Under the pieces are notes generated by a model. The model was not told the origin of the DNA. It was given only the letters and a program-made list of their open reading frames with translations, and ran no database searches. A stretch of DNA of 64,000 nucleotides from Gammaproteobacteria bacterium (GTDB lineage: Bacteria; Pseudomonadota; Gammaproteobacteria; Arenicellales; JAJDZL01), in contig JAJEHQ010000011.1 of NCBI GenBank assembly GCA_022823625.1, positions 22,889 to 86,888 on the forward strand, read 5' to 3'. The position numbers and the translations under genes were made by a program. Positions within the stretch are counted from its first letter, which is position 1; each line of letters opens with the position of its first letter. Below, piece by piece: positions 4,868 through 35,614 of this stretch.

Positions 4868-4900
4868 ATTTTCACTAACCGAAAAAACCATCCAATCCGT

Positions 4901-5743
4901 ATGAGCGATCTATTTGATTTCCTGCCCAAAAATCAGCTTTTTGCTGTTTTTGGTAATCCCATCTCACACAGTAAATCGCCTTTGGTTCATGGCCTGTTCG
5001 CGAAAGAATTCGGGATCAATATGGAATATCGCGCTGTTCATGTTGATATTGGTGGGTTTGAGCAGGCGGTCAGTGGATTCCAAGCTAATGGCGGCAACGG
5101 TCTCAACGTAACGGTCCCGTTTAAATTGAATGCCTGGAAATTAGCTGATCAATTAACTGATCGTGCTCGCCTTGCTGGAGCAGTCAATACCTTGACACTT
5201 GACGATGTCCTCAAAGGTGACAATACTGATGGTGCAGGTTTGGTTAAGGACATCGAAACCAACCTTGGCGTACCTTTCGTCGACACAAATATTCTCATCG
5301 TTGGAGCCGGTGGCGCTGTCCGCGGCATACTGTCACCGATTCTAGAGCTAAGGCCAAAACTTCTCGCAATCGCAAATCGCACCAAGGGTAAAGCTGATGA
5401 GTTAGCTAAAACTTTTTCTGACTTCGGAAACGTCAAGGCATTTGCGTTGGACGAGGCGGATTCAATTGCTTATGACATCATCATTAACGCCACTTCAACA
5501 GGCATTCACGGAGAACTCCCTCAAATTTCATCTCGAATATTTGAGAACACCAAGCTGGTTTACGATCTTGTGTATGGCAAGCATCCCACTCGATTTATGG
5601 AATGGGCTAAAGAAAGCGGTGTTGATCAGATTTCAGATGGACTGGGTATGCTTGTTGAACAGGCTGCCGAGTCATTCAACGTGTGGCATGGTCTAATGCC
5701 GCAGACTATTCCGGTGATTCAGGCCGTCCGCGAAAAGTTATAG
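4901..5743 (+). CDS. aroE: Shikimate dehydrogenase
   Basis: NPISHSKSPLVH, NVTVPFK, NTDGAG and VGAGGAVRG motifs in canonical order; 280 aa. Confidence 0.9.
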   Translation: MSDLFDFLPKNQLFAVFGNPISHSKSPLVHGLFAKEFGINMEYRAVHVDIGGFEQAVSGFQANGGNGLNVTVPFKLNAWKLADQLTDRARLAGAVNTLTLDDVLKGDNTDGAGLVKDIETNLGVPFVDTNILIVGAGGAVRGILSPILELRPKLLAIANRTKGKADELAKTFSDFGNVKAFALDEADSIAYDIIINATSTGIHGELPQISSRIFENTKLVYDLVYGKHPTRFMEWAKESGVDQISDGLGMLVEQAAESFNVWHGLMPQTIPVIQAVREKL

Positions 5744-9075: not shown

Positions 9076-9698
9076 GGATAGTGACAAATGAAAAACTGCA
9101 AGCGCCATCTGAACTAGACAGCGATGTGTCTGAAATGGCGATGTCTGGGTAATGTTTTCGTCCGCAGAAGCCGGAAGCACTGGTCTATCCTGGCACGACC
9201 TTCACGGAGATTTTCCAAGAGACATGTACAATGCCAGTCTGTCGTGGAGTTTTCTGGCTGGACAGCAGCTTGTTGGACGGGTTGCTCGTGTGGGTATGAA
9301 GAGCCATCCTGTCATTCATATAATTGAAGCCGAGGACGTGCTAATTGAAAAACTGTTTGCAACCCGTCTGACCAAAGGCATGCGGGACATGGGACTTTCG
9401 GCTTTTTGCGGGCTCAGCCAGTCATAGAGGTTTCTTTCTGGTAGCATGAAGGAAAGGGATGATGGCGGAGCAACTGCACGCTGACTGCAGCGTTTGACAA
9501 AGCACATCCGGGATGCCATCGTGAGGATCCCCAGCTGCTTCAAATCCTCTGAAAACAGGTTGTCAATGAGGCGTTTGCGGTTCTCAGATACCGGTGCGAT
9601 CAGTTCCGGCCGCAGGTCGGAATTGCTTCTATAATTCGTACCTGGGGCCTCCTTTGACAAAGATCGACTCCGAAACTTGGTAAACAGAGAACCCAATA

Positions 9699-11135
9699 TT
9701 GCCAACTGAAATTTCCACTGGATTTAATCCTCATCGTCGTCGTTTTCTGCAGGCTTCAGCCACCGCAGCTGCAGTAGCGATTCTACCGCTTGAAAGTAGT
9801 TCCAGCCAATCATTTCCCTCAAATTTGGTTGCATCACCAGCAGATGCCGCTTTGGTTTTGGACCATGGGCCGGTCACTAAAGTCTGGGCATTCAACGAGA
9901 CTGTGCCAGGACCGCTACTTCGCTATAGACAGGGCGATACGTTGAGTCTCATGGTTGAAAACAAACTGGATCAACCGACGACTGTTCACTGGCATGGTCT
10001 GAGGGTGCCAATCGGTATGGATGGAGTGCCACATCTCAGCCAGAAACCAATCGATCCGGGTGACTCATTCCACTACCAATTTAAATTGGAGGATGCAGGT
10101 ACTTTTTGGTATCACCCGCATTTTGCCAGCTCCCAACAGGTTGGTATGGGACTGCACGGTGTTTTGATTGTTGATGAGTACGAACCTGTTGCGGTTGATC
10201 GTGATGTTGTCTGGGTGTTGGATGATTGGCGGTTAGATCAGGATGCCCAGATTCTGCCATTTGAGTCAAACATGCGAGATACTAGTCATAACGGACGACT
10301 TGGCAATGTGGTGACTGTTAATGGCACCATCGACGAAAAATTTGAGGTGCATCCCGGTGAACGTCTGCGTCTTCGCTTGGTGAATGTTGCAAATGCCAGA
10401 ACGTTTGCACTCAATTTTAACGATCTGGAACCATGGGTTATTGCAGTGGACGGTCATCCGATCAATCCACGCCGTCTCGATCAAAGCCTTGCTCCGTTAG
10501 GTTCCGGGCAGAGAATGGATCTAATTGTGGATATTGCCGGTAATCCAGGTGAGGTGAGCTCTGTAATCGATCAGGCTTACGCTCCCAACTTTGCCTATGA
10601 ATTGATGCAACTGGTTCGAACCGATAATTCCACATCAATTCAAAATTCCGTACCGAAGCGTCTGGCAGACAATCCCGTATCACCTCCGGACCTTGTGCAC
10701 GCAAAACGAATATCATTCCTCTTCGAAGGTGGCGCGATGGGTGGGATGACAGGTGCCACAGTAGAGGGAGAGTTTAAGACAATTCAGGAGTTGGTCGGAC
10801 TTGGAAAGGTCTGGTCATTGAACGGTATCGTGCAAAATGACGTTCACCTTGACCCGCCAATGTTCACCCTTGAACTTGGTCAGTCCTACATATTCGAGCT
10901 GGAAAACCGTACCGCCTGGGAGCATCCTTTCCATTTACACGGACATAGTTTCCAGGTAATAAGCCGTAATGGAGAACCATTGGCTGAACAGTTCACGCGG
11001 GATACAGTTCTGCTACAGCCGGAGGAAAGTGCGGAAATTGCTTTTTTGGCGGATAACCCGGGCAAGTGGATGTTTCACTGCCATATTCTGGAGCATCAAG
11101 ATGCTGGAATGACATCTGTCATTGAAATCATATAG
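9699..11135 (+). CDS. Multicopper oxidase, Tat-exported
   Basis: Twin-arginine signal HRRRFLQASATAAAVA. Copper-binding motifs HWHG, WYHPH, HPFHLHGH, HCHILEHQDAGM. TTG start as given in the track. Confidence 0.85.
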   Translation: MPTEISTGFNPHRRRFLQASATAAAVAILPLESSSSQSFPSNLVASPADAALVLDHGPVTKVWAFNETVPGPLLRYRQGDTLSLMVENKLDQPTTVHWHGLRVPIGMDGVPHLSQKPIDPGDSFHYQFKLEDAGTFWYHPHFASSQQVGMGLHGVLIVDEYEPVAVDRDVVWVLDDWRLDQDAQILPFESNMRDTSHNGRLGNVVTVNGTIDEKFEVHPGERLRLRLVNVANARTFALNFNDLEPWVIAVDGHPINPRRLDQSLAPLGSGQRMDLIVDIAGNPGEVSSVIDQAYAPNFAYELMQLVRTDNSTSIQNSVPKRLADNPVSPPDLVHAKRISFLFEGGAMGGMTGATVEGEFKTIQELVGLGKVWSLNGIVQNDVHLDPPMFTLELGQSYIFELENRTAWEHPFHLHGHSFQVISRNGEPLAEQFTRDTVLLQPEESAEIAFLADNPGKWMFHCHILEHQDAGMTSVIEII

Positions 11136-11268: not shown

Positions 11269-11610
11269 TTAAGCAGCTTTAGCTTTGACAACCTTGGCTT
11301 CGGCGACCGGTGAAACTGTGGGTGAAAGCACTTTCTTCCACAGTCCAAAGTAAGCGTCATAGGCTTCATTGCCAAGTTCAATAGCAGACTGGGTTGAACT
11401 CTGAATCTGATCGACAACCGATGCGTTCCAGATTTTCTGGCTTGCGACATAGTCATCAAAGTTTTTAATATTGGCCCATTCGACAGCCTGATCAGACACT
11501 TGCTGTGCGAATTTCTGACCAGATACAACGCTCTGGTTGACTGATTTGGACAAAAGTCCTGAGTTAATGCTGACTGCTTCGTTTACGAAATTGACAATTT
11601 TGTTTTGCAT
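11269..11610 (-). CDS. Small alpha-helical protein, phasin-like (PHA granule-associated family), tentative
   Basis: 113 aa, no Cys/Trp-rich or TM features, Ala/Lys-rich tail AEAKVVKAKAA. General resemblance to phasin-family proteins. Own terminator; long AT-rich upstream region. Confidence 0.4.
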   Translation of the reverse strand: MQNKIVNFVNEAVSINSGLLSKSVNQSVVSGQKFAQQVSDQAVEWANIKNFDDYVASQKIWNASVVDQIQSSTQSAIELGNEAYDAYFGLWKKVLSPTVSPVAEAKVVKAKAA

Positions 11611-11843
11611 GGCTTATTTTCTCCAAGAAAAGTTTCTATGTTGCAGTGCAATATAATTCCTTTTGAATGGAAAGTCAAGTCTTTTTTGAATAAAATTTCA
11701 ATTTATTTGTAATTTTGTCACATCAGAATCATATTTTGAGAATAAATACATAATAACAAAGATATATAAGTCTAACAAATTTTAACAATTTCCCAAAATG
11801 GCCGTTTTTATCTCATCAGATGAGGTGATTATTTGGGTTGAAG

Positions 11844-11867
11844 TGTATTGTGCTTATGCACAATACA
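11844..11867. promoter_or_regulatory. Perfect 10-bp inverted repeat (candidate operator) in the 466-bp intergenic region
   Basis: TGTATTGTGC-TTAT-GCACAATACA at 11844-11867. A second small palindrome TTGCA-G-TGCAA lies at 11641-11651, 31 nt upstream of the phasin-like start. Confidence 0.35.
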
Positions 11868-12076
11868 TGCAAAATTTCAAAAAAACTGGCAGGAAAATCG
11901 GTTTTAAGTCGAAGTGGTGTGAGTTATCCAATTGATTCAGTGAATTTTCAAGTTTTATAATTACTGAAATAATTAATAAACTATTGATAATGATAAAAAC
12001 AGGCCTTGATTAGAGTGCTGAAATCCCCGCACTCATTTTCAGGAAACCAGCCTGGATACCAGGGAGGCTATATCAA

Positions 12077-12862
12077 GTGAAATTAGGCTTCGCGTATCGG
12101 ATTGCGCTGATGCTCGCACTGACGCTTGTCGTAGGCACAGCAATGACAACTGTGTTGAGTCTGCACAAATTCGAACGTATCCTCGCAGACCTGCTGACAT
12201 CCAGGTTTGAGTTTGTAGCCAATAATTTGCGACACGATATAGAAACCCAGATGGACTTGGGTTTGGTGCTTGCAAATTTAGAAAACATCAATGAAGAGAT
12301 GGAAAATCTGCTGCTTGATGATGAGCAGATACTATCTATTGAGATTTTTGATGAATCAGGCACCGTTATTTTCAGTACTGACCCCAGTTTCATCGGCGAC
12401 CTGGTAGCAGAAGACTGGCTATTCTTGTGGCAGATTAACCGTAATAAGTCTTCCTGGTCGCTTCTGGAAAAAGACGCTGGTGTCGTTGGCGCAGGCCTGA
12501 AGAACAACCTGAACCAGGATGTTGGTTCAATCGCCCTACGCTATTCGCGAGTATTTCTTGATCAAAGCGTCAATCAGCAGCTTGAGCGTTTGCTGTTTCT
12601 GGTTGGCGTGGTTGCCGTTGTGATGGCAGTGCTCAGCGTATTGGGTTGCGCCTTGGTGCTGAGACGCTATTTCAAGGATTGGGCAAATATGAGTGAAGCG
12701 CTTACCGATATCAACTCGCAAAACCGCGACAGTCCTAATCTAGCTGAAGCTAACTCCCGTCACCCGGAATTTGAAGAGTTTTCCACTTCGGTCTTTGATG
12801 CCTTTGACTCAATTGATTCGGCAACCAGTGAAATTAGAAAACTCGACGAGGAAGCAGTATGA
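12077..12862 (+). CDS. Membrane-anchored extracytoplasmic sensor-like protein (two TM segments, no output domain)
   Basis: GTG start. TM1 IALMLALTLVVGTAMTTVLSL, ~150-aa loop, TM2 LFLVGVVAVVMAVLSVLGCALVL. The loop contains ILSIEIFDESGTVIFSTDP, a motif shared with the next two sensor proteins. ATGA overlap with the next gene. Confidence 0.6.
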   Translation: MKLGFAYRIALMLALTLVVGTAMTTVLSLHKFERILADLLTSRFEFVANNLRHDIETQMDLGLVLANLENINEEMENLLLDDEQILSIEIFDESGTVIFSTDPSFIGDLVAEDWLFLWQINRNKSSWSLLEKDAGVVGAGLKNNLNQDVGSIALRYSRVFLDQSVNQQLERLLFLVGVVAVVMAVLSVLGCALVLRRYFKDWANMSEALTDINSQNRDSPNLAEANSRHPEFEEFSTSVFDAFDSIDSATSEIRKLDEEAV

Positions 12863-15045
12863 CGACTAAGGCTAAAGCTTCCAGCGTCGGGAAACGCGCA
12901 AGTCAATCTATAGTCGATGTATTTCGTCGCGAGCAGCGTAATCTGCTGATACGTCTGGTTCTGCTTGCAGTTTTAGTACTGGTTCTCGGTCAGTCAGCTG
13001 TATCGTGGTTCGCATTAGATGGCTTCGAGCAGGAACTTGACCCACAGCTGCATCAGAAAGCGACTGTCGTTGGCAATGCATTGGCCGAGCAGTTCACGTA
13101 TGCAACGGAAGAACTCGAAATTCCAGTTCAGGGTTTAGTCGGTGTGGAAGAGTACTTCGAGAGTGTACTGATGGCCAACGATGACATCAAATACCTTTCG
13201 CTTTTCGATGATTCGGGCAATTTACTCTTCGTCAGTGGAATTTCACGCGGCGAAATGAACGAGATCATGCAGGCTATTGAGAATGATGAAGTACAAGCCC
13301 ATAGCTATGGCAGTGCAGTCGGTGCTCATTTCGATAGTGTATTTGAGGTTTCTGGTGGTAATGGAGCTAACAGTGAATTGCACGTTGGTGTCAGTAGCGA
13401 GCGGGTACGCAGCCACCTCAGAGAAATATTTCTGGAAGTCATCACCATTGTCGTGATCTGCTGGCTGGTTACCTTTGAATTTCTGTTGTTCTTCATCGTC
13501 GCCCGTGTTGAAAAACCGATGGAGACGATTTGGCGAATTATGTCAGAAGGTGCGCGTGGAAAATTTTCTTCCTGGCTGCCAGTCAGATCCAGTGATGAAA
13601 TTGGTCAGCTAATCACAAGCTTCAACCGCACGCTTTATGATTTACGTCATCGATACAGTGATTTTGTGTTTGACGTAAAGGAAACACAGGATGCGCAGAT
13701 CGATAGCACAATTTCCGAAAAGATTGAAGAGATCCATCATCAGGTTAGAAGGCGCTTCCAATTTGAGAAGGGTAGGATAATGCAGATTGAAGCGGCGGAT
13801 CGTATCCGAGTTCCGCTGTTTCTTTTCATATTTTCTGAAGAACTCACTCGTTCTTTCCTGCCGCTGTACATTCAGAAATACGCACCAACAGATTTGATGC
13901 TTTCGACCGAACTCATGATTGGGTTGCCAATCACGCTGTTTATGGTTGCGGCGATGATTGCAACCCCGCTAGGTGGCGGTTTTGTAGACCGTGTGGGAGT
14001 TAAGAAAGTATTTTTAACCGGAACAGTCCTGGCACTCATTGGGTTTGTCGGAAATTTCTATGCACAGGGCTATGTCGATCTGGTTTTGTTTCGAGTTTTG
14101 ACAGGCATTGGCTACGGGCTGGTATTCATTGCTTCTGAGAGCTGGGTTTCACAAAACGCCCGGCGTCACAGCAGAGCATCAGCGACAGGAGTGTTTGTTG
14201 CGGCGGTATTCGCAGGCATCATCTGCGGCCCACCAATTGGAGGAATTCTTGCTGACCGGTTTGGATTCGAAGCAACTTTCTTATTTTCCGCATCACTGGC
14301 AGTTATTTCAGGTTTGTTCATATTTCAAGTCTTTGGTCAGTCGGAAAAAGCTGAGGAAGATTCAAATCAAAAGCGAACTCGTCCTGCTCTGATCTTGGGA
14401 TTTAAGGGTTGGCTAACTCTGCTGACGGATCTGCGGTTTGTATCGGTGCTCATCTTTGCAGCAATCCCGGGAAAAATGATGGTAGCCGGATTTGTTGCAT
14501 ATCTAGTACCGCTCTATTTGAATGATCTTGGCCACAATGAACCTTCGATTGGCCGGATACTAATGCTTTATGGAATTGCAACCCTGCTCTGCCTTACGAT
14601 CGGTGCACGCTTTGCAGACCGGACGGAAAAATATGGCACTATGGTAAGCCTCGGTACAATTGTTGCCGGATTGGGTTGTCTTGCGGCACTGCTTTCCAAC
14701 GTTTATATAGATCCAACAACTGCGGTTGTTCTCGCCATCGCATCACTTGGCGTTGGGCATGCTCTCACGCTGACATCGCAAAATTCAATTATTCAACAAG
14801 TTGCGGAAAGATATCGATACACCCTTGGCAGGGCATCAGTAATCGGCGCATATCGTCTGTGTGAACGGTTTGGCATGGTGGCGGGACCGATGATCGCGGT
14901 CGCTCTGATATCAGGATTTGGTTATGTGGGTGCGATTGTCGGATTCGGAGTGATACTGATTGGATTGATCAGCCTCTTTGTCATCACAAATCTGACCAGA
15001 GCCAATACCCCAATGGAAACAGAAGTTGGACTGGCAAATGAGTAA
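12859..15045 (+). CDS. Fusion protein: extracytoplasmic sensor module + HAMP domain + MFS transporter
   Basis: N-terminal TM/loop/TM. HAMP-like PMETIWRIMSEGARGKFSSWLPVRSSDEIGQLITSFNRTLYDL. C-terminal ~400 aa of multi-TM MFS body with motif-A-like GGGFVDRVGVKK. Confidence 0.7.
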   Translation: MTTKAKASSVGKRASQSIVDVFRREQRNLLIRLVLLAVLVLVLGQSAVSWFALDGFEQELDPQLHQKATVVGNALAEQFTYATEELEIPVQGLVGVEEYFESVLMANDDIKYLSLFDDSGNLLFVSGISRGEMNEIMQAIENDEVQAHSYGSAVGAHFDSVFEVSGGNGANSELHVGVSSERVRSHLREIFLEVITIVVICWLVTFEFLLFFIVARVEKPMETIWRIMSEGARGKFSSWLPVRSSDEIGQLITSFNRTLYDLRHRYSDFVFDVKETQDAQIDSTISEKIEEIHHQVRRRFQFEKGRIMQIEAADRIRVPLFLFIFSEELTRSFLPLYIQKYAPTDLMLSTELMIGLPITLFMVAAMIATPLGGGFVDRVGVKKVFLTGTVLALIGFVGNFYAQGYVDLVLFRVLTGIGYGLVFIASESWVSQNARRHSRASATGVFVAAVFAGIICGPPIGGILADRFGFEATFLFSASLAVISGLFIFQVFGQSEKAEEDSNQKRTRPALILGFKGWLTLLTDLRFVSVLIFAAIPGKMMVAGFVAYLVPLYLNDLGHNEPSIGRILMLYGIATLLCLTIGARFADRTEKYGTMVSLGTIVAGLGCLAALLSNVYIDPTTAVVLAIASLGVGHALTLTSQNSIIQQVAERYRYTLGRASVIGAYRLCERFGMVAGPMIAVALISGFGYVGAIVGFGVILIGLISLFVITNLTRANTPMETEVGLANE

Positions 15046-16087
15046 TCACAACAAGACTCAAAAAATATTATTAACAGTATTTCTGGTGCTGGCATTTGGC
15101 ATTACATCGTTGTCAAGCGCAATGGAACCTGAAGATGTGCCTGGCTTTACGCGTCCATTTTATGTTTTCGCGGTGCTTTGGCGTGGTGAAACTGAAGTGG
15201 AAGCGGGCTTTCGTGAATACTTTAGTCAGCGCGGTATTCCAGTCAGAATGACAGTGCGAAGTCTCGAATTGGATCGAGGTAACGCACCACCCATCATTGA
15301 AGAAATTCGACGGACTAAACCAGATTTGGTTTACACGTGGGGGACTGGAACCACGTTAAGTATTCTAGGCCCGCTGAATCCTGAAGAACCTGAGAAATTT
15401 GTTCAGGACATTCCAGGAATGTTTGTACTGGTTGCATATCCAATCAGTGCAAAAATTGTACAGAGTTTCGAAAACACCGGACGCCCGGTTACCGGGGTAT
15501 CGTTTCTGGCGTCAATTGAGTCTCAGCTGAAGGCAATTGTCGATTATGGCAAATTCCAGAAAATCGCTGTAATTTACGATGAGACTTCCAGCAATTCCAG
15601 AATCAATGTTGAATCACTGAAAGAAAGTGCCCCTGAACTTGGGCTTGAATTGGTGGTACTGCCTGTTCCCCTTGGAGAAAACGGTAAACCTGATCCAGAA
15701 AAATTAACTGAATTGATTCAAACAGCAAAAAATGAAGGTGCACAACTACTGTATATGGGGCCGGATTCGTTTATTACGCGCCATGGTGATGCATTCACAT
15801 CAGAGGCCATCGCAGTTGGACTGCCGACATTTGCATCAACGCAGGCACCACTCAATGGGTCGCGGGCCATGTTTGGATTGGTATCGGATTACCACACGCT
15901 CGGCAAACTGGCTGCGACACAGGCGGAAAAAATACTCGTCGATAAACAAAATCCGCAAGATCTGCCTGTGGTCAGTCTGTCTCGGTTTAAGTTGTGGATC
16001 AACATAGACGTTGCCCGTGAAGTCATGATGTACCCGCCAATGGACATGATCGCGATCGCAGATTTCAAAACATCCCCACAGAACTAA
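15038..16087 (+). CDS. Periplasmic substrate-binding protein (COG2984-like ABC-type SBP fold) with signal peptide
   Basis: Signal peptide KILLTVFLVLAFGITSLSSAME; ~340 aa alpha/beta SBP-like sequence. No cognate ABC permease or ATPase is adjacent. The ATG at 15038 overlaps the upstream stop; the track start is 15026. Confidence 0.55.
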   Translation: MSNHNKTQKILLTVFLVLAFGITSLSSAMEPEDVPGFTRPFYVFAVLWRGETEVEAGFREYFSQRGIPVRMTVRSLELDRGNAPPIIEEIRRTKPDLVYTWGTGTTLSILGPLNPEEPEKFVQDIPGMFVLVAYPISAKIVQSFENTGRPVTGVSFLASIESQLKAIVDYGKFQKIAVIYDETSSNSRINVESLKESAPELGLELVVLPVPLGENGKPDPEKLTELIQTAKNEGAQLLYMGPDSFITRHGDAFTSEAIAVGLPTFASTQAPLNGSRAMFGLVSDYHTLGKLAATQAEKILVDKQNPQDLPVVSLSRFKLWINIDVAREVMMYPPMDMIAIADFKTSPQN

Positions 16088-16119
16088 CAACCGGGTGAAC
16101 TGAATGTTCAAAGTAAGTC

Positions 16120-18696
16120 ATGCAGATACGAACCCGGATTAGTCTACTCAGCGCAATTGTCACAATTGTTGTGGCCGCAGCGATCACTTTCGCAGCGCTG
16201 CAACGCGAAGTTTTGATCGACAAACGCTATTCGAATCAGATTATTGCGGACCAGCTGATTTTGTGGAACAAGATCAAGGACGGGCTGATCGATGAGATGG
16301 AAGATCTTGTTTGGTTGCTTCAGGAAAATCGTGAACTTCTGGATGCACTGGAATCAGAAAACCTGGTCGAAATCCAAAGAGTTGGCAACAAGATAAAAGA
16401 AGAGTTTGAGTCTGAACCGGCGCTTGATCGGGTCGATCTCATTATGCCAGACGGTTCGTTGGCGTATTCCTCCCAAACTGCTGTATTTCCAAGTTCTATT
16501 ATTTCGAATGCTGTAATTGAAGATGTGATCGAAAGTGAAATTCCAGTCAGGGGAGTGGGTAATGATAAGCAGCGAAACACAGCACTGGTTTACGGCACGC
16601 CAATTTATGGCGATGATGGCAGCGTTTTGGCTCTTGGTGTTCTTGGTCTTGATATCTCTAGCGCACTGCTGGAATTTGAGGAAGTCAATTTTGCTTCAGT
16701 TGTTATTGTTAATCGACGTGGTCGCATACTTGCAGCAACCGGAGAAAATTTGTGGGATCGCTACAGCGAATTGATCGATATTTCTGAAGCAAACAATCTT
16801 CAGACCATTGAAGATGAAGGCCGTTATTTTTCAGTTATTGTTTTACCTCAAACTGCTGAGTTAGGCGGGTTGGTCGGCCGGTTGCTCAACATCAGGGAAG
16901 TGACGGAACTGGTTACCCGTCAACAGCAAATCTCTCAAAGAACGCTTCTGGTAGCAGTCGTTTTTCTTGCGCTCGCCGTGTTTGGAGTCTATTTGTATAT
17001 GGCACACGCATTTGCTCCATTGGTCGAGGGAGTGAGTGTTCTCAGTGCACTAAGTAAAGGTGATTTGCGAGCTAGAATTGAACGTAACACAGGCAATGAC
17101 GAAGTTGGCATGATCGCCAACGCAGTGAATGTCTTTCACAACAATTTACTAACGATTCAACGCATCCGTCGTTCCCGCGAGCGACAGTATGGACGGCAGC
17201 AGCGATTTATTTTTCGAGAAATGCAAGGACTTGCTGACACACTCGACGGTGATGAACGCGACGCATTACTTACGGAATTACAGGAACTTGGCGATCTGGT
17301 TGAGCTGAAGGCGGGGCTTAGGTCGAGACAGACAGATGTAGCAAACACTGAAGATCCTGCACAAGGCGAGCAGGATTCCGACAGTCTTGCGATGCTGGCA
17401 CAGGCATTTCAAGGGATGTCGAACCGTGTTCAGAACCAGCATCAAAGATTGCGAGACGCATTGGCAACCAAAGAGGCTCTGATTGCGCTTCGGAACGAAC
17501 TGAATATTGCGACTCGCGTTCAACAGTCATTGCTGCCTCCAAATGTAGAGTTGTCCAGTGCTTACAAAATATGGGGTGGTATGTGGCCCGCAAAAGAAGT
17601 GGGCGGTGATTTTTATGACTTCTTCCCACTCGATGACCATCGTCTTGCAATTGCAATTGCGGATGTATCCGGCAAAGGTGTTCCAGCTGCACTGTTTACG
17701 GTGATGGCGCGTACGATGCTGCACGCCTCTGCTGCGTTTTTGAATTCGCCTGGCAAGGCGTTGTCAGTCATTAATAATTTTTTGGAAAGCAATAATGATG
17801 AAGGCTTGTTTGTAACGGTGTTTTACGGCATTCTGGATATTCAGACTGGTAAATTCAGATATGCAAATGGCGGTCACAATCCACCAATTATTCTGGACAG
17901 CAAAGGGGCGCGTTCTCTGGAAACAACCTCAGGAATGGTGCTTGCGATGTTTCGGAACATCTTATACAAGGATACCGAAATTGAATTGGAACCAGACGCT
18001 CGCCTTATCATGCTAACCGATGGAATTCCAGAGGCATTCAATGCAGAGGAGGAGGCATTTGGCGACGACCGTGTACTCAAGACAATAGAAGCTCTGCCCG
18101 AAAACAGCACACCAGCGGAAGATGTCGAATTTATCGTCAACACCGTCAATAAATTTGTTGGTGATGCGCCGCAATTTGACGATATTGCGTGTGTTGTTTT
18201 TCGGTTCAAGGAGTTTTTTGAGGCGGTTAGGAGGAAAAGCGAAGAGGGCGGTGATTCTTCAGACCAAGACGAATCTGCTAAATTGGAATTGATGATCGAC
18301 ACCGATCTTGCAGAACTGGGCAGAATCGCGGTTGAAATTGAAGAACATGGTAAGGCACACAATTGGCCGAACGAGTGGTTGTTCAATGTCAATTTGTCTT
18401 TAGATGAATTGGTCACCAACGTCATCAATTATGGATACGCGGAAGGTAAGACTACAAAAGAGATTCAACTTACTCTGAAAGTTGTCAATGGGAGTTTGTG
18501 GGTTGTATTGGTCGATGATGGTATTGAGTTCAACCCGTTCAGCGATGCACCGGCACCGGATACCGATGCGCCGTTAGAAGAACGTCAAATCGGAGGGCTT
18601 GGGATTTTCTTTGTGAAATCTTTAGTCAACGAGACGGACTATACAAGAAAAGATGGGAAAAATTACACAACCCTGATTTTGCACCCATCGACATAA
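16120..18696 (+). CDS. Sensor-HAMP-PP2C (SpoIIE/RsbU-type) phosphatase fused to an RsbW/SpoIIAB-type serine kinase (GHKL ATPase) domain
   Basis: N-terminal TM, ~260-aa extracytoplasmic region, second TM. HAMP (GDLRARIERNTGNDEVGMIANAVNVF). PP2C motifs GGDFYDF, ADVSGKGVPAAL, LTDGIPEA, DDIACVV. C-terminal kinase-like ELVTNVINYG, DDGIEFNP, GGLGIFFVKS. Confidence 0.75.
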   Translation: MQIRTRISLLSAIVTIVVAAAITFAALQREVLIDKRYSNQIIADQLILWNKIKDGLIDEMEDLVWLLQENRELLDALESENLVEIQRVGNKIKEEFESEPALDRVDLIMPDGSLAYSSQTAVFPSSIISNAVIEDVIESEIPVRGVGNDKQRNTALVYGTPIYGDDGSVLALGVLGLDISSALLEFEEVNFASVVIVNRRGRILAATGENLWDRYSELIDISEANNLQTIEDEGRYFSVIVLPQTAELGGLVGRLLNIREVTELVTRQQQISQRTLLVAVVFLALAVFGVYLYMAHAFAPLVEGVSVLSALSKGDLRARIERNTGNDEVGMIANAVNVFHNNLLTIQRIRRSRERQYGRQQRFIFREMQGLADTLDGDERDALLTELQELGDLVELKAGLRSRQTDVANTEDPAQGEQDSDSLAMLAQAFQGMSNRVQNQHQRLRDALATKEALIALRNELNIATRVQQSLLPPNVELSSAYKIWGGMWPAKEVGGDFYDFFPLDDHRLAIAIADVSGKGVPAALFTVMARTMLHASAAFLNSPGKALSVINNFLESNNDEGLFVTVFYGILDIQTGKFRYANGGHNPPIILDSKGARSLETTSGMVLAMFRNILYKDTEIELEPDARLIMLTDGIPEAFNAEEEAFGDDRVLKTIEALPENSTPAEDVEFIVNTVNKFVGDAPQFDDIACVVFRFKEFFEAVRRKSEEGGDSSDQDESAKLELMIDTDLAELGRIAVEIEEHGKAHNWPNEWLFNVNLSLDELVTNVINYGYAEGKTTKEIQLTLKVVNGSLWVVLVDDGIEFNPFSDAPAPDTDAPLEERQIGGLGIFFVKSLVNETDYTRKDGKNYTTLILHPST

Positions 18697-18732
18697 GACG
18701 CTTATCAACTGCCATCGTGCTACGGTTCTGAT

Positions 18733-19830
18733 ATGGATCAATCGTCTGCTATTGAGGCCGATTCAGCACTACGCGAGTGGTATGCATCAAAGGGTTCTCC
18801 GAGTGTCGAAACTTTCGATTGGAGCCACTACGATGCAATGGTCAGTTCTGTGCGATGCAGTATTCCTGACTGGCCATTTCGATTCAGTTTCACTTATATC
18901 CATTCCGAACAACTTCAGGATAAGGAGTTCGGATTGGGAAAGCCTTATGAAATTCCGCTAAATGCTACTGATCCAGGCGGTGACGGACTTCCAATAATTG
19001 CTATTGGTGGACTGATCAATGTTGCCCAGCGTTTTGATTTTATGTCGCTCGATCTGATGCCGCACTTTCGCCTGATTAGCCTCGACCTTGCGGGACGCGG
19101 TCGAAGTGGCTGGATGGCTGAGCAATCAGACTACACTCTGGACGCTTACGTTGAACAATTGCGTCAGTTGATGGATTTCCTGAAATTTGATTGCTGCATA
19201 CTGCTGGGTTCATCACTGGGCGGGTCAATTGCGTTGCGTTTTGCGGCAAACAATCCGGATCGTGTCAGAAAAATCATATTGAACGATAGCGGTCCGTTTA
19301 TACCACTGGAGCGACGCGCACGGCGTGCATCTGCAGTTGGCCGACATTATGTCTTCCGATCCCCAGCTGAGTTACTGCGTCGTACTGGCGCTGCAACGCG
19401 TCCAGTGGGTTATGCGCCAGATGCAGTTCTCCTGCACAACTTTCACCACAAAACGCGCTGGTCAGACGACGAGGGCGGTCGAATTTATAGACATGATCTT
19501 CGGGCAACACTTGCCTATCGAAATATTGCGGTACAAGACTTGAATCTGTGGGATGAGTGGAATCATTTGACCTGCCCAGTGCTGCTACTTCATGGTACAG
19601 AGAGTGACGCCACTTCGACCAATACGATTAACCGTATGCGTGAGCATCCTGATCTGTCCGTCATACATGTACATGGTGCAGGTCACACTCCTTCTCTTGG
19701 CGACTTTGGCCTGACTCAGTTGATCGCGGAATGGCTGAAATTTGACCGTCCGTACAGTGCGGATATAGAATTTCGTACGGCTTACAATCCAGTCCGTCTG
19801 TTCTACCCCGATGCTCGACGAAGAAGCTAA
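18733..19830 (+). CDS. Alpha/beta-fold hydrolase
   Basis: Nucleophile elbow GSSLGGSIA, LHGTESD and HGAGHTP in the order expected for the Ser-Asp-His triad; 365 aa with a ~90-aa N-terminal extension. Confidence 0.7.
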   Translation: MDQSSAIEADSALREWYASKGSPSVETFDWSHYDAMVSSVRCSIPDWPFRFSFTYIHSEQLQDKEFGLGKPYEIPLNATDPGGDGLPIIAIGGLINVAQRFDFMSLDLMPHFRLISLDLAGRGRSGWMAEQSDYTLDAYVEQLRQLMDFLKFDCCILLGSSLGGSIALRFAANNPDRVRKIILNDSGPFIPLERRARRASAVGRHYVFRSPAELLRRTGAATRPVGYAPDAVLLHNFHHKTRWSDDEGGRIYRHDLRATLAYRNIAVQDLNLWDEWNHLTCPVLLLHGTESDATSTNTINRMREHPDLSVIHVHGAGHTPSLGDFGLTQLIAEWLKFDRPYSADIEFRTAYNPVRLFYPDARRRS

Positions 19831-20401
19831 ACCAGGTCGAGGCTTCATATTCATGCGCCACGGCGAGACCGCGGCAAACTACGACAAGATTTGTTGTGGT
19901 GGTGATCGTGAGATGCCGATGATTGATTCCGGACGTCAACAGGTCAGAACTGCGGCTGAGATATTGCGGAATCATCGGCTAATTCCACAAGTCATTATTA
20001 CAGGCGATCTCCAGCGAACGGTTGAGAGCGCAAAAATTATCCAGAACGAACTGAATCCTCTTGCTCAGATACTCATTGATCAGGATCTAAATGAACGCCA
20101 TCTTGGAGACTGGAATGGGCAAACTCAAGCAGTGATCAACCCGATAATGATCGCAGGAGAAACGCCTAATGGTGGCGAGAGCAGGGCTGAATTTCGATCA
20201 CGAATGAACCGTTCCCTCGATAGACAGTTGAAATACTTTTCCAACTGGCCTTTGCTCATTGGCAGTCGCGGCAATGCTCGCATTTTGCTGGAAGCGGTTC
20301 AGGACCCAGACGCCCCTTTTTTTCCTAATGGGCAGATTCTTAAAGTTAAAATCGCCGAAATCGGCGATTTTTCTGTGCAGAATATTGAAAGGCTGGAGTG
20401 A
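19811..20401 (+). CDS. Histidine phosphatase family protein (phosphoglycerate-mutase-like)
   Basis: FIFMRHGETAAN (RHG catalytic motif) near the N-terminus; 196 aa; 20-nt overlap with the hydrolase gene. Confidence 0.7.
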   Translation: MLDEEAKPGRGFIFMRHGETAANYDKICCGGDREMPMIDSGRQQVRTAAEILRNHRLIPQVIITGDLQRTVESAKIIQNELNPLAQILIDQDLNERHLGDWNGQTQAVINPIMIAGETPNGGESRAEFRSRMNRSLDRQLKYFSNWPLLIGSRGNARILLEAVQDPDAPFFPNGQILKVKIAEIGDFSVQNIERLE

Positions 20402-20536
20402 ATCTAAATTCTGTCAGATGTGTATTCCTTCTCAGAATTAGAGTCAAAATTTACTGTCGGTCTTCTGAATGCGATTCAGGCTACGGTACCTTCCGTGGTC
20501 GTTTGATAGTCTAGCAGGCAGGTCTTCTGCACAAAA

Positions 20537-20869
20537 TTAAATCGCATTCAGAGCATCTTGACGCGAGTCTTTTATATCGATGATGTTGCCAAAACCGCTT
20601 ATTTCAAAAACCTCTTTGACTCCAGGCGCAATTGAGCAGATGGAAAAGTGAACACTTTTACTGGACAGTGTTTTTGCCAGCAAAAGAATTACTCGTAATC
20701 CAGCACTGCTTATGTAGCTTAACTGACTCAATTCCAAAATGACCGGCTGATTGGCATCACCGACTGATTTATTGATTGATGCTTGAAAATCAAGTGCGTT
20801 CTGGCCGTCAATACGGCCACTCGGTATAAGAATAATTGCACCGTTCGCATGTTCAGTCGCAATTTCCAT
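20537..20869 (-). CDS. STAS-domain protein (anti-sigma-factor antagonist, RsbV/SpoIIAA type)
   Basis: 110 aa. LSQLSYISSAGLRVILL carries the conserved phosphorylatable Ser context (DSSG-like). Sits 89 nt downstream of amt on the same strand and converges on the + strand sensory operon. Confidence 0.8.
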   Translation of the reverse strand: MEIATEHANGAIILIPSGRIDGQNALDFQASINKSVGDANQPVILELSQLSYISSAGLRVILLLAKTLSSKSVHFSICSIAPGVKEVFEISGFGNIIDIKDSRQDALNAI

Positions 20870-20958: not shown

Positions 20959-22335
20959 TCAATCCGGATCATTATCCGGCATAATCATAAATTCTGGATA
21001 AGCCTCAATTCCAAGTTCAGCAACATCCTGCCCAAGTTCTTCGACATTCGGTGTCACTCGTGCTTTCATCGTCATGTCGAGTATTTTCCATACTATTAAC
21101 GATGTGATAAATACGAATGCTCCAATTGCAAGAATACCGATTAATTGTACTGAAAATTTTGCACCGCCTGCAATACAGACTGCAAGTGTACCCCAGATTC
21201 CGGCGAACAAATGTGCTGGGACTGCGCCGACAACGTCATCGATCTTCAAATTCTCTAGTAATTTTACACCTGCTGTGGAAACCAAACCACCAATTCCACC
21301 GATCACAATTGCCCATTGATGAGAAACAATATCCGGTCCAGCAGTAATTGCGACCAACCCCGCGATCGCCCCATTCAGACAGGCAAGTAAATCGACCCGG
21401 CCCAAAATTGGCCTGGACACCATCATTGCAACCATGACACCTGCCGCTGCAGCCAGGTTGGTGTTGGCGAGAATGATACTCATTGCAACAACGTTGAGCG
21501 CCGAGTCCATGGCTAACTGAGACCCGCCATTAAATCCAAACCAGCCGAGCCAGAGAATGAAAACACCTAAAGTAACGACTGGAATATTGGATGGCGGTGT
21601 ATTTTTCACTGTGCCATCTTTTCTAAACTTCCGTGCCCGGGCACCGACTATGATTGCGCCGGCCAAAGCCGCCCAACCGCCTGTCGAGTGAACGATCGTT
21701 GATCCCGCAAAATCCTGAAAGCCCATTTCTGAAAGCCAGCCGCCACCCCAGGTCCAGGACCCGATAATCGGATAAATGATTGCTGTAAGTATCAGGGTAA
21801 ATGCGAAGAATGTCCACAACTTAACTCGTTCGGCCAATGTGCCCGAAACAATTGATGCGGTTGTAGCAACAAAGACCATCTGGAAAAACCAATCCGACAT
21901 GGTCGAGTATCCAGATTCAATGACCGGACCCAAGGCCGCACTGTCGCCGCCCAAAAGGGCGATTTCTTCGGGTGTGGAGCTATAGAAAAGGGTGAATGTC
22001 CCGAAAAAACTGCCAACGTCAATGTACATCAGGTTGTAGCCTAATGTGTAATAGGCCAGCCCTGCGATGGCATAAAGCCCGATGTTTTTAAGACAGATGA
22101 CCGAGGCATTCTTGGTTCGCACCGAACCGGATTCAAGCATGGTAAATCCGGCACACATCCACATAACCAGTGCGCCCCAAAGAATGAAGGAAAAGGAATT
22201 CAGAACAAAGCCAGTTTCACCATCTGGTGATGCAACTGCTATGGGTGCAACAGCCGTAAGTGCAATTGCGGTTATCCCTTTCAACCCAATTTTCAAAATC
22301 CGTATAAGAATTGCATTTCTCGCGATTGGTGCCAT
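20959..22335 (-). CDS. amtB: Ammonium transporter (Amt family)
   Basis: FQDFAGSTIVHSTGGWAALAGAIIVGAR signature; 11-TM-like. The ATG at 22335 is preceded by GGAGA at 7-nt spacing and gives a signal-peptide-like N-terminus. The track ORF extends to 22362. Confidence 0.9.
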   Translation of the reverse strand: MAPIARNAILIRILKIGLKGITAIALTAVAPIAVASPDGETGFVLNSFSFILWGALVMWMCAGFTMLESGSVRTKNASVICLKNIGLYAIAGLAYYTLGYNLMYIDVGSFFGTFTLFYSSTPEEIALLGGDSAALGPVIESGYSTMSDWFFQMVFVATTASIVSGTLAERVKLWTFFAFTLILTAIIYPIIGSWTWGGGWLSEMGFQDFAGSTIVHSTGGWAALAGAIIVGARARKFRKDGTVKNTPPSNIPVVTLGVFILWLGWFGFNGGSQLAMDSALNVVAMSIILANTNLAAAAGVMVAMMVSRPILGRVDLLACLNGAIAGLVAITAGPDIVSHQWAIVIGGIGGLVSTAGVKLLENLKIDDVVGAVPAHLFAGIWGTLAVCIAGGAKFSVQLIGILAIGAFVFITSLIVWKILDMTMKARVTPNVEELGQDVAELGIEAYPEFMIMPDNDPD

Positions 22336-22525
22336 TTGCTTGTCTCCACAAGTTGTTTTCAAACAACGCTATGGATTATAACCATATTAATAAAATGGCT
22401 AGTCAATCGGTTGCGAATTGCCTCTGTTCGTCGATCGCCTGAAAGTAACATCAATTAATAGTAATTTGGTGAATCGTCTCTGATCGACGACACGTTTTAC
22501 AAACGACAAAAAAAAGAAAAATGAC

Positions 22526-24121
22526 GTGAAATACAGCCTCCGTTTACTTACAGGGGACATTTTCGGCGGTATTACCGCTGCAATCATTGCCCTACCTTTA
22601 TCGATAGCATTTGGTGTCGCGTCAGGTGTCGGCGCGCAGGCAGGATTGTATGCCGCAATCGCTATAGCAGTCTGTGCCGCAATATTTGGCGGTACCCGTG
22701 CGATGGTGTCAGGTCCCACTGCACCGATGATTGTTGCCATGGCGGTAATTGTCACCCATTCTGCAGATTCTCTGGCAGAAGCTTTTACCATCGTGATGCT
22801 TGCAGGATTACTGCAAATCGGCTTTGGCATATTTCGCTTAGGCCGATTCATTGCTTACACACCTTACTCCGTGATCTCTGGATTCATGTCGGGCATCGGC
22901 GTCATCATTATTGCACTTCAGGTATTTCCGATTCTTGGGATCAGTCTTGACAGTCATTTAGACATTCACATCATTTCGCAAATACCCGACATTCTAGCCA
23001 GTATCAATTTGCATGCAGTAAGTGTGGCTGCGATCACGCTTTTGACTATTCTGTTTTGGCCACTCAACCTGCATCGGTTCATTCCAGCTACTTTAGGCGC
23101 AATGATTGTTGGTTCTTTAATTGGCTATTTCATTTTTCAGCAGGCGCCTGTCGTTGGTACTATCCCCTCAGGTCTCCCTGAGCTTCAAATCCCTGTTCTT
23201 GGACTTGAGTTTTTAGTTAAAGTCATTCAGCCTGCGTTGGTTCTCGCAATTATCGGGGTTATCGAAACTTTGCTCGTCGCACTGATTTCAGATGCCATGA
23301 CCCGCTCGCGGCACAAACCCAATCGAGAAATTGTTGCCCAAGGAATTTCAAACATACTCTCCGGTCTGGTTGGTGGTTTACCTGGATCTGGTTCGCCTGT
23401 TCCCACAATAGTAAATATCAAGGCTGGCGGCAGAACTCGAGTTTCGGCTATTTTGTGTGGATTGATTCTTTTCGCGTTTCTTTTCGATCTTGGCAGAATG
23501 GTAGAACAGATTCCGCTGGCAGTTCTGGCGGCACTGCTCGTCAGAATCGGCTGGAATGTGATCGACTGGCGGTTTATCTCCAGAATTCACAAGATTCAGA
23601 AAACACACGTTACGGTTATGGTGTTAACTGCATTCCTTACCGTGTTTGTGGACCTGATCACCGCAGTCGCAATTGGGCTGATTGCTTCGGGCATGATCAA
23701 CGCAATGAATGCAGAGAGTATCGAGTTAGACAGTGTTTTGTCTGTACCGCTGATTGATCCTGACTCAGATGATGTGTTTTTATCAAGAACTGGGCTCGTT
23801 AGAATGACCGGTCGATTTACATTTGCTTCTGCGAGCAGGCTGCAGCACGTAATAGCTGCCGACATCAGGGATCACGAAGTGGTGATTTTTGATTTTTCCC
23901 AAACCGATGACTTAGACGACAGTGCAGTCATTGTTATCGGTGCATTGATTAGCAGTTCCTACGAGCAGGGCAAGCCGTGTGTCATATTGGGTCTGGATAA
24001 GAAAATTGGCCGGCTGTTGCATTCACTCCATGCCCTAGAGGAAGTTGACGAAGCCAACTATGTCGATACACTCGATGAAGCGAAAAAGCTGGCAAACTCC
24101 TTACTCCCACCTTTGTCATGA
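22526..24121 (+). CDS. SulP-family anion transporter with C-terminal STAS domain
   Basis: N-terminal LTGDIFGGITAAIIALPLSIAFGVASG, multi-TM core, cytoplasmic C-terminal ~130-aa STAS-like region. GTG start. Confidence 0.85.
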   Translation: MKYSLRLLTGDIFGGITAAIIALPLSIAFGVASGVGAQAGLYAAIAIAVCAAIFGGTRAMVSGPTAPMIVAMAVIVTHSADSLAEAFTIVMLAGLLQIGFGIFRLGRFIAYTPYSVISGFMSGIGVIIIALQVFPILGISLDSHLDIHIISQIPDILASINLHAVSVAAITLLTILFWPLNLHRFIPATLGAMIVGSLIGYFIFQQAPVVGTIPSGLPELQIPVLGLEFLVKVIQPALVLAIIGVIETLLVALISDAMTRSRHKPNREIVAQGISNILSGLVGGLPGSGSPVPTIVNIKAGGRTRVSAILCGLILFAFLFDLGRMVEQIPLAVLAALLVRIGWNVIDWRFISRIHKIQKTHVTVMVLTAFLTVFVDLITAVAIGLIASGMINAMNAESIELDSVLSVPLIDPDSDDVFLSRTGLVRMTGRFTFASASRLQHVIAADIRDHEVVIFDFSQTDDLDDSAVIVIGALISSSYEQGKPCVILGLDKKIGRLLHSLHALEEVDEANYVDTLDEAKKLANSLLPPLS

Positions 24122-35450: not shown

Positions 35451-35614
35451 AATCAAGAAGTGACTGTTTGAAAGTCGCCGTGCAAAACGAATCCATCCCC
35501 CGTTACCGACCAAATCGGCACTAATTCTCCGTCAATTCGTGCAACAGAATGTGGCGACTCGAAACTTGAGGCGAAGTGCCTCAATTTTACTATATGCAAA
35601 TACTGGGGGAGGAG

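Follow-up and report, generated by a model that had tools for sequence, protein, structure and literature searches.

Results

A sensory operon converges on an ammonium transporter-STAS gene pair

We analyzed a 64,000-nt stretch of DNA, hereafter the window, from a gammaproteobacterium of the Arenicellales (GCA_022823625.1, contig JAJEHQ010000011.1, positions 22,889 to 86,888), in which six tightly packed plus-strand genes, here called A to F (12077-20401), converge on a gene for a small STAS protein. Directly upstream of the STAS gene, on the same minus strand and separated from it by 89 nt, lies a gene for an ammonium transporter (Amt), and the interest of the locus lies mainly in this Amt-STAS pair. 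An earlier note, made from the sequence of the window alone, had described the operon and the facing STAS gene as a candidate partner-switching system; the Amt gene was absent from its account. The genes are as follows.

12077-12862, plus strand: A, a transmembrane (TM) segment, an sCache (PDC) domain, a second TM segment and a HAMP domain, with no output domain (AlphaFold (AF2) model, Foldseek and hhalign)
12859-15045, plus strand: B, an sCache-like sensor, a HAMP domain and a 12-TM major facilitator superfamily (MFS) transporter in one polypeptide (Pfam and AF2 model)
15026-16087, or from ATG 15038, plus strand: C, a TrpX-like periplasmic solute-binding protein (SBP) of family PF04392 with a signal peptide (Pfam)
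16120-18696, plus strand: D, a TM segment, a dCache-like domain, a TM segment, a HAMP domain, a coiled linker, a PP2C/SpoIIE phosphatase and an RsbW-type GHKL kinase
18733-19830, plus strand: E, an alpha/beta-fold hydrolase (Abhydrolase_1, 58.6 bits)
19811-20401, plus strand: F, a member of the histidine-phosphatase superfamily (His_Phos_1, 82.7 bits)
20537-20869, minus strand: STAS (V), a single-domain protein of the anti-sigma-factor-antagonist type, 110 aa (STAS, 70.5 bits)
20959-22335, minus strand: Amt, a 'marine subtype' ammonium transporter (Ammonium_transp, PF00909, 325 bits)

The open reading frames (ORFs) of the operon lie where the earlier note had placed them, and each junction it described matches the sequence: A and B overlap by ATGA (12859-12862), B ends at 15045 and C starts at TTG 15026 or ATG 15038, the choice of the ATG giving an 8-nt B/C overlap, gaps of 32 and 36 nt separate C from D and D from E, and E and F overlap by 20 nt. 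The convergent STAS gene is present as reported, and the description of A to F as a co-directional sensory operon is supported. Profile searches of the encoded proteins, which the note had proposed, bear out its domain calls in Pfam and NCBIfam; the sensor domains are called as well, more weakly than had been implied (HAMP of B, E 0.004; dCache_1 of D, 35.9 bits for a gathering score of 45). Both weak calls are backed by family-level matches, and the structural model of B also shows the HAMP domain. A terminator scan combined with RNA folding found no convincing terminator in the Amt-STAS gap or in the convergent F/STAS gap.

D and the STAS protein make up a partner-switching set

In D, a dCache-like domain (16252-16803) and a HAMP domain (17035-17151; 34.6 bits) precede the PP2C/SpoIIE domain (17632-18207) and the kinase (18301-18678). 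The earlier note had staked its interpretation on the last two domains, and both are supported by Pfam, SpoIIE/PP2C with 169.4 bits over aa 505-696 and HATPase_c_2 with 69.7 bits over aa 728-853. The metal-binding aspartates of the PP2C domain (D497, D515, D634, D687 and D688) are invariant in 12 homologues, and the N-box, G1 and G2 motifs of the kinase are conserved in fused and separate forms alike. According to NCBIfam, the PP2C domain is nearest to the Pseudomonas RssB and SiaA families and the kinase is RsbW/SpoIIAB-like; with 72.7 bits for a cutoff of 700 in model NF038263, D falls well outside SiaA itself. When genome contigs were searched with a profile of the D alignment, the matches listed were mainly generic Firmicutes PP2C-HATPase_c_2 fusions, with few true orthologues.

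The STAS protein passes the anti-sigma-factor-antagonist model TIGR00377 (79.4 bits, cutoff 53.45). Fifteen orthologues, encoded either beside Amt or beside D and the kinase, share Y52, S54, S55, G57, L58 and R59 without exception, and Ser54 (codon 20708-20710), in the motif YISSAGLR, is the predicted phospho-acceptor. Since the locus encodes PP2C, a kinase of the RsbW type and a STAS protein whose serine is conserved, it holds the partner-switching set that the note had proposed, and judged by its motifs this set is complete and catalytically intact.

The two remaining enzymes of the operon are less telling. E has an intact Ser-Asp-His triad (GSSLG, SDAT, GH), with motifs kept in 8 orthologues; its matches in PDB and NCBIfam searches are generic, and in L087 its gene is translationally coupled to the kinase gene. 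We considered E as a signalling hydrolase resembling RsbQ, which is speculative: no RsbQ-named entry occurs among the 60 PDB matches listed. F keeps the RHG motif and, in 8/8 aligned orthologues, has arginine in place of the second catalytic histidine (SRG, not SHG), so that it may have an altered chemistry or be a pseudo-enzyme.

The Amt-STAS pair is conserved across rearrangements

The STAS gene does not merely face the operon, as had been thought, since it is the downstream member of a conserved gene pair, which makes Amt its conserved associate. Amt followed by STAS on the same strand is found in 13 fetched loci (L001-L006, L088, L091, L092, L094, L096, L172 and L173) besides the window, mostly with gaps of 57-172 nt. 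In L001-L006, L088 and L172/L173 the pair adjoins the A-F cassette in one of three relative arrangements: convergent on it, co-directional after it (L005), or with a gene for a pyridoxal-phosphate (PLP)-dependent decarboxylase in between (L006). The STAS gene beside Amt is orthologous, by sequence comparison, to the one beside D and the kinase in distant cassettes.

The pair also occurs apart from the cassette. It stands alone in L091, with no cassette within 10 kb. A metagenome scan with the STAS alignment showed STAS joined to this Amt subtype in other combinations (L092, L094, L096, L101 and L102). In L092 a preceding kinase gene overlaps the start of Amt by 4 nt and two STAS genes follow. 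In L096 the order is Amt, STAS, a PP2C protein with a receiver domain (REC-PP2C), an RsbW-type kinase, an SBP of the Peripla_BP_6 family and a HAMP histidine kinase, and L094 has the same gene set in convergent orientation. L101 and L102 carry kinase, STAS and REC-PP2C in this order, with Amt about 5 kb away. The link to Amt is thus kept across two input designs, one built on Cache-HAMP-PP2C and the other on an SBP and a histidine kinase acting on REC-PP2C.

No P-II/GlnK gene (PF00543) is present in the Pfam-annotated Amt neighbourhoods, where the STAS gene holds the adjacent position. Nor is there a sigma-factor gene in the window region or in any Pfam-annotated neighbourhood. The earlier note had reported neither a sigma-factor gene nor a DNA-binding gene, and in agreement with it the present locus and those related loci that are annotated contain neither.

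Several further observations concern the surroundings of these genes. Two tandem copies of marine-subtype Amt precede the STAS gene in L088 (18394-21369). A PLP-dependent decarboxylase gene adjoins the STAS orthologue in two unrelated loci (L006, 13023-14447; L097, 7871-9388). Genes for a circularly permuted ATP-grasp protein, an Alpha-E protein and a transglutaminase lie beside partner-switch genes in L006 (1332-4772), L089 (1-186) and L093 (3116-3997), loci that otherwise differ from one another. In L099 (92-5634), which has no adjacent Amt, a close relative of the STAS gene follows a molybdopterin oxidoreductase gene resembling that of assimilatory nitrate reductase, in what looks like a nitrate-assimilation context; an ORF in the same locus is called as an MFS protein fused to an Alginate_exp porin-like domain, an odd and only possible fusion.

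The A-F cassette is a recurrent unit

Gene neighbourhoods were looked up from homologues of D, B or Amt. The order A-B-C-D(-kinase)-E-F recurs in 11 other loci (L001-L006, L087, L088, L172, L173 and, in part, L008, a high-GC locus whose ORF calls are uninformative), which answers the earlier note's question about gene-order conservation. Because this order is kept in 11 loci while D is only 44-72% identical and the flanks vary, the arrangement is far beyond chance. About half of the loci encode the kinase as part of D; a separate gene for a kinase of 141-147 aa directly follows D in L004, L006 and L087, and in L005 the kinase gene lies upstream of the cassette. Just upstream of the L005 cassette, 2903-5676 holds a type III glutamine synthetase gene together with that separate RsbW-type kinase gene; the synthetase is a further association with nitrogen assimilation.

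Co-occurrence of A-B-C-D with a STAS gene across genera, another check that the note had suggested, was found in Alphaproteobacteria and in one spirochaete genome bin. The carriers of this distant core include Magnetospirillum moscoviense (L023), metagenome-assembled genomes (MAGs) of Azospirillum and Rhodobacterales, a Spirochaetia MAG (L007) and contigs L108 and L166. In L011 and L023 the genes run A-B-C-D-kinase-STAS, and elsewhere their order varies. The flanks of the distant cassettes share no common extra gene and contain no sigma factor; Pkinase, GGDEF, DctP, FtsW and FlaF genes are scattered among them. Independently of Amt, the A-B-C-D cassette is a widespread signalling unit that has no name.

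The ammonium transporter resembles ammonium receptors

The mechanically called Amt ORF starts at TTG 22362. Since ATG 22335 is preceded by a GGAGA ribosome-binding site and opens a signal-peptide-like N-terminus, it is probably the true start, which gives a protein of 458 aa. Amt scores 518.5 bits against TIGR03644 ('probable ammonium transporter, marine subtype'), just above the cutoff of 514, and is 72-80% identical across the 120 homologues listed. Among solved structures it matches Sd-Amt1 (235 bits; 8qj3, 8qj4 and 8qpf) and Ks-Amt5 (202 bits; 6eu6) best, whereas the assimilatory transporters Af-Amt1 and E. coli AmtB, at 140 and about 108 bits, score far lower. Sd-Amt1 and Ks-Amt5 are ammonium receptors rather than transporters (PMC11152129, PMC5764959), and receptors of this kind share an N1/N2 signature, Q-x6-E-x15-N-x2-D-[F/T]-x54-60-T-x2-[S/T] (PMC11152129).

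The corresponding positions of the window Amt are C61, E68, N84, L87, Y88, S161 and S164. Of the signature residues, E, N and S are retained, T has become S, and Q and D are lost. The N1-site ligand set is therefore retained (Glu, Asn, Thr replaced by Ser, Ser) and the N2 aspartate is not. The spacing is 72, due to a loop insertion, and the same residue pattern is found in the 120 homologues listed. The canonical pore is kept (Trp/Ser vestibule, Phe gate, twin His); N321 aligns with Asn-269, which narrows the exit of Sd-Amt1, and F64 with Phe-25. Going by these residues, Amt falls short of the strict receptor signature but is clearly receptor-like, and stand-alone proteins of this Amt cluster may be bifunctional (PMC11152129). 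No transducer domain is fused to Amt, whose 458 aa match PF00909 only. Longer homologues (529-554 aa) were considered as fusions and set aside as N-terminal or start-codon miscalls or an internal duplication.

An acidic C-terminal tail, ...LGIEAYPEF[M/V]xMPDxDD (20959-21040 region), is strongly conserved across the Amt sequences inspected and may be where a partner from the cytoplasm docks.

A, B and C are putative sensory proteins, one of them fused to a transporter

A has no Pfam or NCBIfam family in profile searches. Its TM segments lie at about aa 5-30 and 172-190, and an AF2 model built from 41 homologues (pLDDT, the predicted score of the local distance difference test, 94.5) shows a TM helix, a PDC/sCache domain, a second TM helix and a HAMP domain. 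In Foldseek, A is most similar to the sensing half of WalK (9a5d, a full-length model, E 5e-11); 4ywz, the extracellular domain of that protein, aligns with a TM-score of 0.76, and the sensor domains of DcuS, CitA, KinD and DctB are further matches. Profile-profile comparison with hhalign relates A to the N-terminus of B (probability 94%, E 1.3e-7), making A a stand-alone paralogue of the N-terminal sensing module of B. The periplasmic domain of D is larger than this module and different from it. An exhaustive search placed the A family at 819 representative clusters, mostly of proteins of about 260 aa.

B matches MFS_1 with 147 bits (aa 321-650), carries the weak HAMP call at aa 234-258 and shows a WalK-like match at its N-terminus in the NCBIfam profile search. 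In its AF2 model (pLDDT 79) the sensor and HAMP helices run into a 12-helix MFS core, a consistent topology, as both the HAMP domain and the N-terminus of the MFS part lie in the cytoplasm. The homologues are of constant length (713-729 aa), many receive a HAMP call, and their name at JGI is 'MFS family permease/HAMP domain-containing protein'. Such a Cache-HAMP-MFS fusion is unusual, a rare case of HAMP wired to a secondary transporter.

C scores 68 bits against ABC_sub_bind and 60.6 bits against TrpX, far under the TrpX cutoff, and its relatives in the PDB are 6hni, 3lkv and 3lft. The three solved members of the PF04392 family bind Trp, Tyr or Phe (PMC10443332). That this SBP lacks an ABC partner, as the earlier note had claimed, is borne out: no permease or ATPase gene lies nearby in the window or in annotated syntenic loci, none occurs within 10 kb in the annotated loci, and their cassettes contain no BPD_transp or ABC_tran gene. 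In its gene context C is an orphan among periplasmic binding proteins, with its gene next to those of membrane sensors.

Upstream region and flanking genes

Three further features adjoin the operon and the Amt gene.

11269-11610, minus strand: divergent gene for a small protein (113 aa), a neighbour that is conserved but only loosely associated
11611-12076, no strand: AT-rich intergenic region, 466 bp, GC 0.30
22526-24121, plus strand: SulP-family anion transporter with its own STAS domain, BicA-like (Sulfate_transp, 270 bits)

The AT-rich region is free of ORFs, as had been noted, and its GC content of about 30% compares with about 45-50% in the flanks. An alignment of five syntenic loci shows an invariant block of 18 nt, ATGTTGCA[G/A]TGCAATATA, at 11638-11655, which contains the palindrome TTGCAGTGCAA (TTGCAnTGCAA; 11641-11651) and overlaps the predicted -10 region and promoter of the small divergent gene; the block looks like a regulator-binding site and is a candidate for one. 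A search for promoter-like sites found a sigma-70-like site at 11932-11961, upstream of A. A sigma-54 promoter search found no consensus in the relevant intergenic regions, and matches elsewhere were at chance level. The small divergent gene has a counterpart of 111-115 aa in the same divergent position in L001, L002, L004, L088, L172 and L173 (tblastn identity 75/51/37% in L001/L002/L004). Its product has no Pfam or NCBIfam match; the idea that it is a phasin found no hidden Markov model support even at E ≤ 1.

On the other side, the SulP protein scores 415 bits against the BicA model, under the cutoff of 880. The earlier note had offered it as a possible output of the system, which we reject for its inconsistent linkage: SulP is present in L001, L002 and L004 and absent from L003, L005, L006 and L088, and because a beta-carbonic anhydrase gene or unrelated genes replace it in other loci it is a poor candidate. 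The beta-carbonic anhydrase gene lies beside Amt in L004 (16668-17252) and L172/L173 (about 9121-9730). The gene divergent from Amt is SulP (window, L001, L002) or beta-carbonic anhydrase (L004, L172, L173), both related to bicarbonate/CO2, which hints at a recurrent pairing of ammonium with inorganic carbon.

Other features of the window include an amidohydrolase gene (24262-25602, minus strand) that passes an 8-oxoguanine deaminase model (663 bits, cutoff 532), and L004, L088, L089, L172 and L173 also have an Amidohydro_1 gene near Amt of this subtype. An ORF of 150 aa without family match (22399-22851, minus strand) covers the stretch between Amt and SulP, runs into the start of the latter and is unlikely to be a real gene. 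Elsewhere lie a bacterial class A RNase P RNA (35614-35990, minus strand; 321 bits) and two tRNA genes (41065-41135 and 59769-59839, both on the minus strand).

Discussion

Relation to known systems

The locus resembles RsbU/RsbW/RsbV and SpoIIE/SpoIIAB/SpoIIAA in having a PP2C phosphatase, a serine kinase of the GHKL type (HATPase_c_2) and a STAS antagonist of one domain with the conserved phospho-serine motif. It differs from them in that no sigma gene is nearby, that phosphatase and kinase are fused in a membrane protein behind Cache-HAMP, and that the gene for STAS forms a pair with one for an ammonium transporter. Neither HAMP-PP2C proteins of the membrane nor fusions of PP2C with a kinase are new, and partner switching without a local sigma factor is also known, in SiaABCD (PMC7647112) and HsbR/HsbA (PMC6482189). 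HsbR/HsbA of P. aeruginosa and CrsR/CrsA of S. oneidensis likewise combine PP2C and an RsbW-like kinase in one polypeptide with a separate STAS protein (PMC6482189), and their sigma factor is not encoded in the locus. The input of HsbR and CrsR is a receiver domain fed by a phosphorelay, whereas that of D is a periplasmic dCache-HAMP module without a receiver domain. REC-PP2C proteins are present in the alternative Amt-linked loci L094, L096 and L102; the variant of L094 and L096 is closer to HsbR/CrsR, but its kinase is separate and it is linked to Amt. SiaABCD of P. aeruginosa also comprises a membrane HAMP-PP2C protein, a kinase and a STAS-like switch protein, with no sigma factor, and SiaC activates the diguanylate cyclase SiaD (PMC7647112). 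The present locus differs from SiaABCD in having no linked GGDEF gene and a fused kinase, while A, B, C and Amt have no Sia counterpart.

With GlnK-AmtB the locus shares a small cytoplasmic signalling protein, covalently modified in response to a nutrient signal (here by prediction), whose gene is paired with Amt. The STAS fold and the predicted serine phosphorylation set it apart from the uridylylated or adenylylated PII trimer, as does the order of the gene pair, in which Amt comes first and STAS second. Ks-Amt5 and Sd-Amt1 are the nearest solved relatives of the transporter, which keeps their N1-site ligands and narrowed cytoplasmic exit; unlike them, it is a stand-alone protein without Q22 and D48 and has no fused transducer, so that any transducer would be a separate protein. 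In SAR11, an Amt-HAMP-like-PP2C fusion, Amt-GI5, has been proposed as an ammonium sensor (PMC11796062), and this fusion is an independent, Rosetta-stone style link of Amt to PP2C signalling.

The sensory part of the operon has its own parallels. TorT/TorS and LuxP/LuxQ are binding-protein-dependent sensors, and UhpC/UhpB is a sensor of the MFS type. Like the first two, the operon encodes an orphan periplasmic binding protein together with membrane sensors and without an ABC transporter; like the third, it includes a transporter-like protein in a signalling operon. It differs from all three in its output, PP2C and kinase acting on STAS instead of a histidine kinase, and from UhpC/UhpB in that the MFS protein is fused to a Cache-HAMP module of its own. 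The earlier note had not recognised the gene combination as a described system, and full-text literature searches likewise found no paper describing a Cache-HAMP-MFS/PF04392/PP2C-kinase cassette and none linking partner switching or anti-sigma antagonists to ammonium transporters.

A possible coupling of partner switching to Amt

Our tentative reading, which we hold with slightly less than even confidence, is that the locus couples a partner-switching module, anchored in the membrane, to a sensor-like ammonium transporter. C and/or the Cache domains would bind a nutrient in the periplasm, probably a compound of organic nitrogen (an amino acid, for example), and the ligand would flip D between kinase and phosphatase modes through its HAMP domain. 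The mode of D would set the phosphorylation state of Ser54, and one phospho-form of STAS would dock on the Amt trimer, where it could gate ammonium uptake or relay a signal of ammonium occupancy from Amt. Organic-nitrogen availability and ammonium would in this way be integrated without a PII protein at the locus. The same signal might govern B in taking up or exporting the sensed compound, A possibly supplies a second HAMP protomer for B, and E and F would be co-transcribed enzymes.

The Peripla_BP_6 family binds amino acids, urea and amides; organic nitrogen is our likeliest guess for the signal because relatives of C bind aromatic amino acids and the alternative design uses a Peripla_BP_6 protein. 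The parts of this scheme are not equally secure. D very probably controls the phosphorylation of this STAS protein. That the system is functionally tied to Amt and nitrogen is a proposition towards which the evidence tilts by a little. Docking of STAS on Amt is suggested by analogy, because the STAS gene is kept with Amt much as glnK is with amtB, and direct binding seems to us doubtful. We are equally hesitant about a functional replacement of GlnK, in which STAS would be a serine-phosphorylated, PII-independent partner of Amt, acting as plug or transducer, with its phosphorylation set by binding-protein-dependent sensing of another nutrient.

For the coupling speak the intact parts of the partner switch, the kept gene order of the cassette, the Amt-STAS pair in its various contexts, the orthology of the STAS genes, the lack of P-II/GlnK and sigma-factor genes in the Pfam-annotated neighbourhoods, the receptor-like Amt, the SAR11 fusion, the SBP families of both input designs and the setting of the STAS relative in L099. 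Several observations weigh against it. Distant cores (D, kinase and STAS) in Alphaproteobacteria, the spirochaete MAG and metagenome contigs have no Amt nearby, which rules Amt out as a target common to all. In L087 no Amt-STAS pair occurs within 10 kb of the cassette, in L089 and L090 this subtype of Amt has no STAS gene next to it, and of the 8 closest metagenomic relatives of STAS only about 3 are linked to Amt. Because many of the loci come from related uncultured Gammaproteobacteria, their counts are not independent events. Amt lacks Gln-22 and the N2 ligand Asp-48 of the strict receptor signature, STAS-linked and unlinked Amts do not differ at the pore or at the N1/N2 positions examined, and the sigma-54 promoter search found no NtrC/sigma-54 site. 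The functional claims, finally, are drawn from gene context only.

Alternative outputs

A serious rival, which we think somewhat unlikely, is a conventional partner switch acting on a sigma or anti-sigma factor encoded elsewhere. The kinase of D would sequester a sigma factor and unphosphorylated STAS would release it, while the pairing with Amt would only put STAS under nitrogen-regulated expression. The earlier note was right that no sigma gene is local, but absence nearby does not make the system free of sigma factors: to our knowledge, rpoS is not adjacent to the HsbR/HsbA or CrsR/CrsA genes, and these proteins nevertheless control RpoS. They do so post-translationally (PMC6482189), and the same route would be open to a locus whose PP2C domain is most similar to the RssB/SiaA families, whose kinase is RsbW/SpoIIAB-like, whose STAS protein passes TIGR00377 and whose distant cassettes do without Amt. 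On the other hand, no sigma or anti-sigma gene occurs in any Pfam-annotated or probed neighbourhood, and the Amt-STAS order survives several rearrangements and two input architectures, a linkage tighter than co-regulation alone needs; the gaps of 57-172 nt may contain a promoter of their own. SAR11, moreover, fuses Amt directly to PP2C (PMC11796062).

The output could also lie inside the cassette, as the earlier note had suggested for the fused MFS protein. STAS or D would then regulate B, the operon would serve ligand-gated uptake or efflux, E and F would process the substrate, and Amt would be a mere neighbour. In cis, STAS domains are known regulators of SulP/SLC26 transporters, B has a sensor and a HAMP domain of its own, and E and F are translationally coupled to signalling genes; the self-contained A-B-C-D-kinase-STAS cores of distant bacteria, which have no other conserved neighbour, also fit. 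We nevertheless regard this reading as improbable and do not favor it. With a sensing module of its own, B needs no second input; the Amt-linked REC-PP2C loci have no B-like MFS protein, yet STAS, PP2C and kinase persist there; and STAS genes of the close clade lie with Amt and not beside B, although the cassette is usually adjacent.

That the operon and the Amt-STAS pair are neighbours without shared function, kept together only by genome kinship, is highly improbable, for although the window, L001, L004, L172 and L173 share wider synteny (COX15, FabB, FabA, LUD) and hence common ancestry, the adjacency is kept where the flanks differ completely (L002, L003, L005, L006 and L088) and where D is 44-55% identical, the kinase and phosphatase need a STAS substrate and only one STAS gene is nearby, and this STAS is orthologous to those inside distant cassettes.

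Implications for ammonium control

Nearly all that is understood about how bacteria control ammonium uptake concerns GlnK/PII. Marine-subtype Amt is used by many marine bacteria, and GlnK is adjacent to it in 0 of the annotated loci examined. If the coupling of partner switching to Amt is real, the Amt-STAS pair with its PP2C and kinase would be a second, mechanistically different route of ammonium control or sensing, one that links organic-nitrogen sensing to ammonium. STAS would then be the missing cytoplasmic transducer for stand-alone 'cluster 2' receptor-like Amts, giving these proteins a testable role that the Sd-Amt1 study left open (PMC11152129), and the enigmatic Amt-PP2C fusion of SAR11 would be explained. 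For the uncultured, probably marine, Gammaproteobacteria that carry the pair, it would represent a new mode of controlling ammonium transport or sensing.

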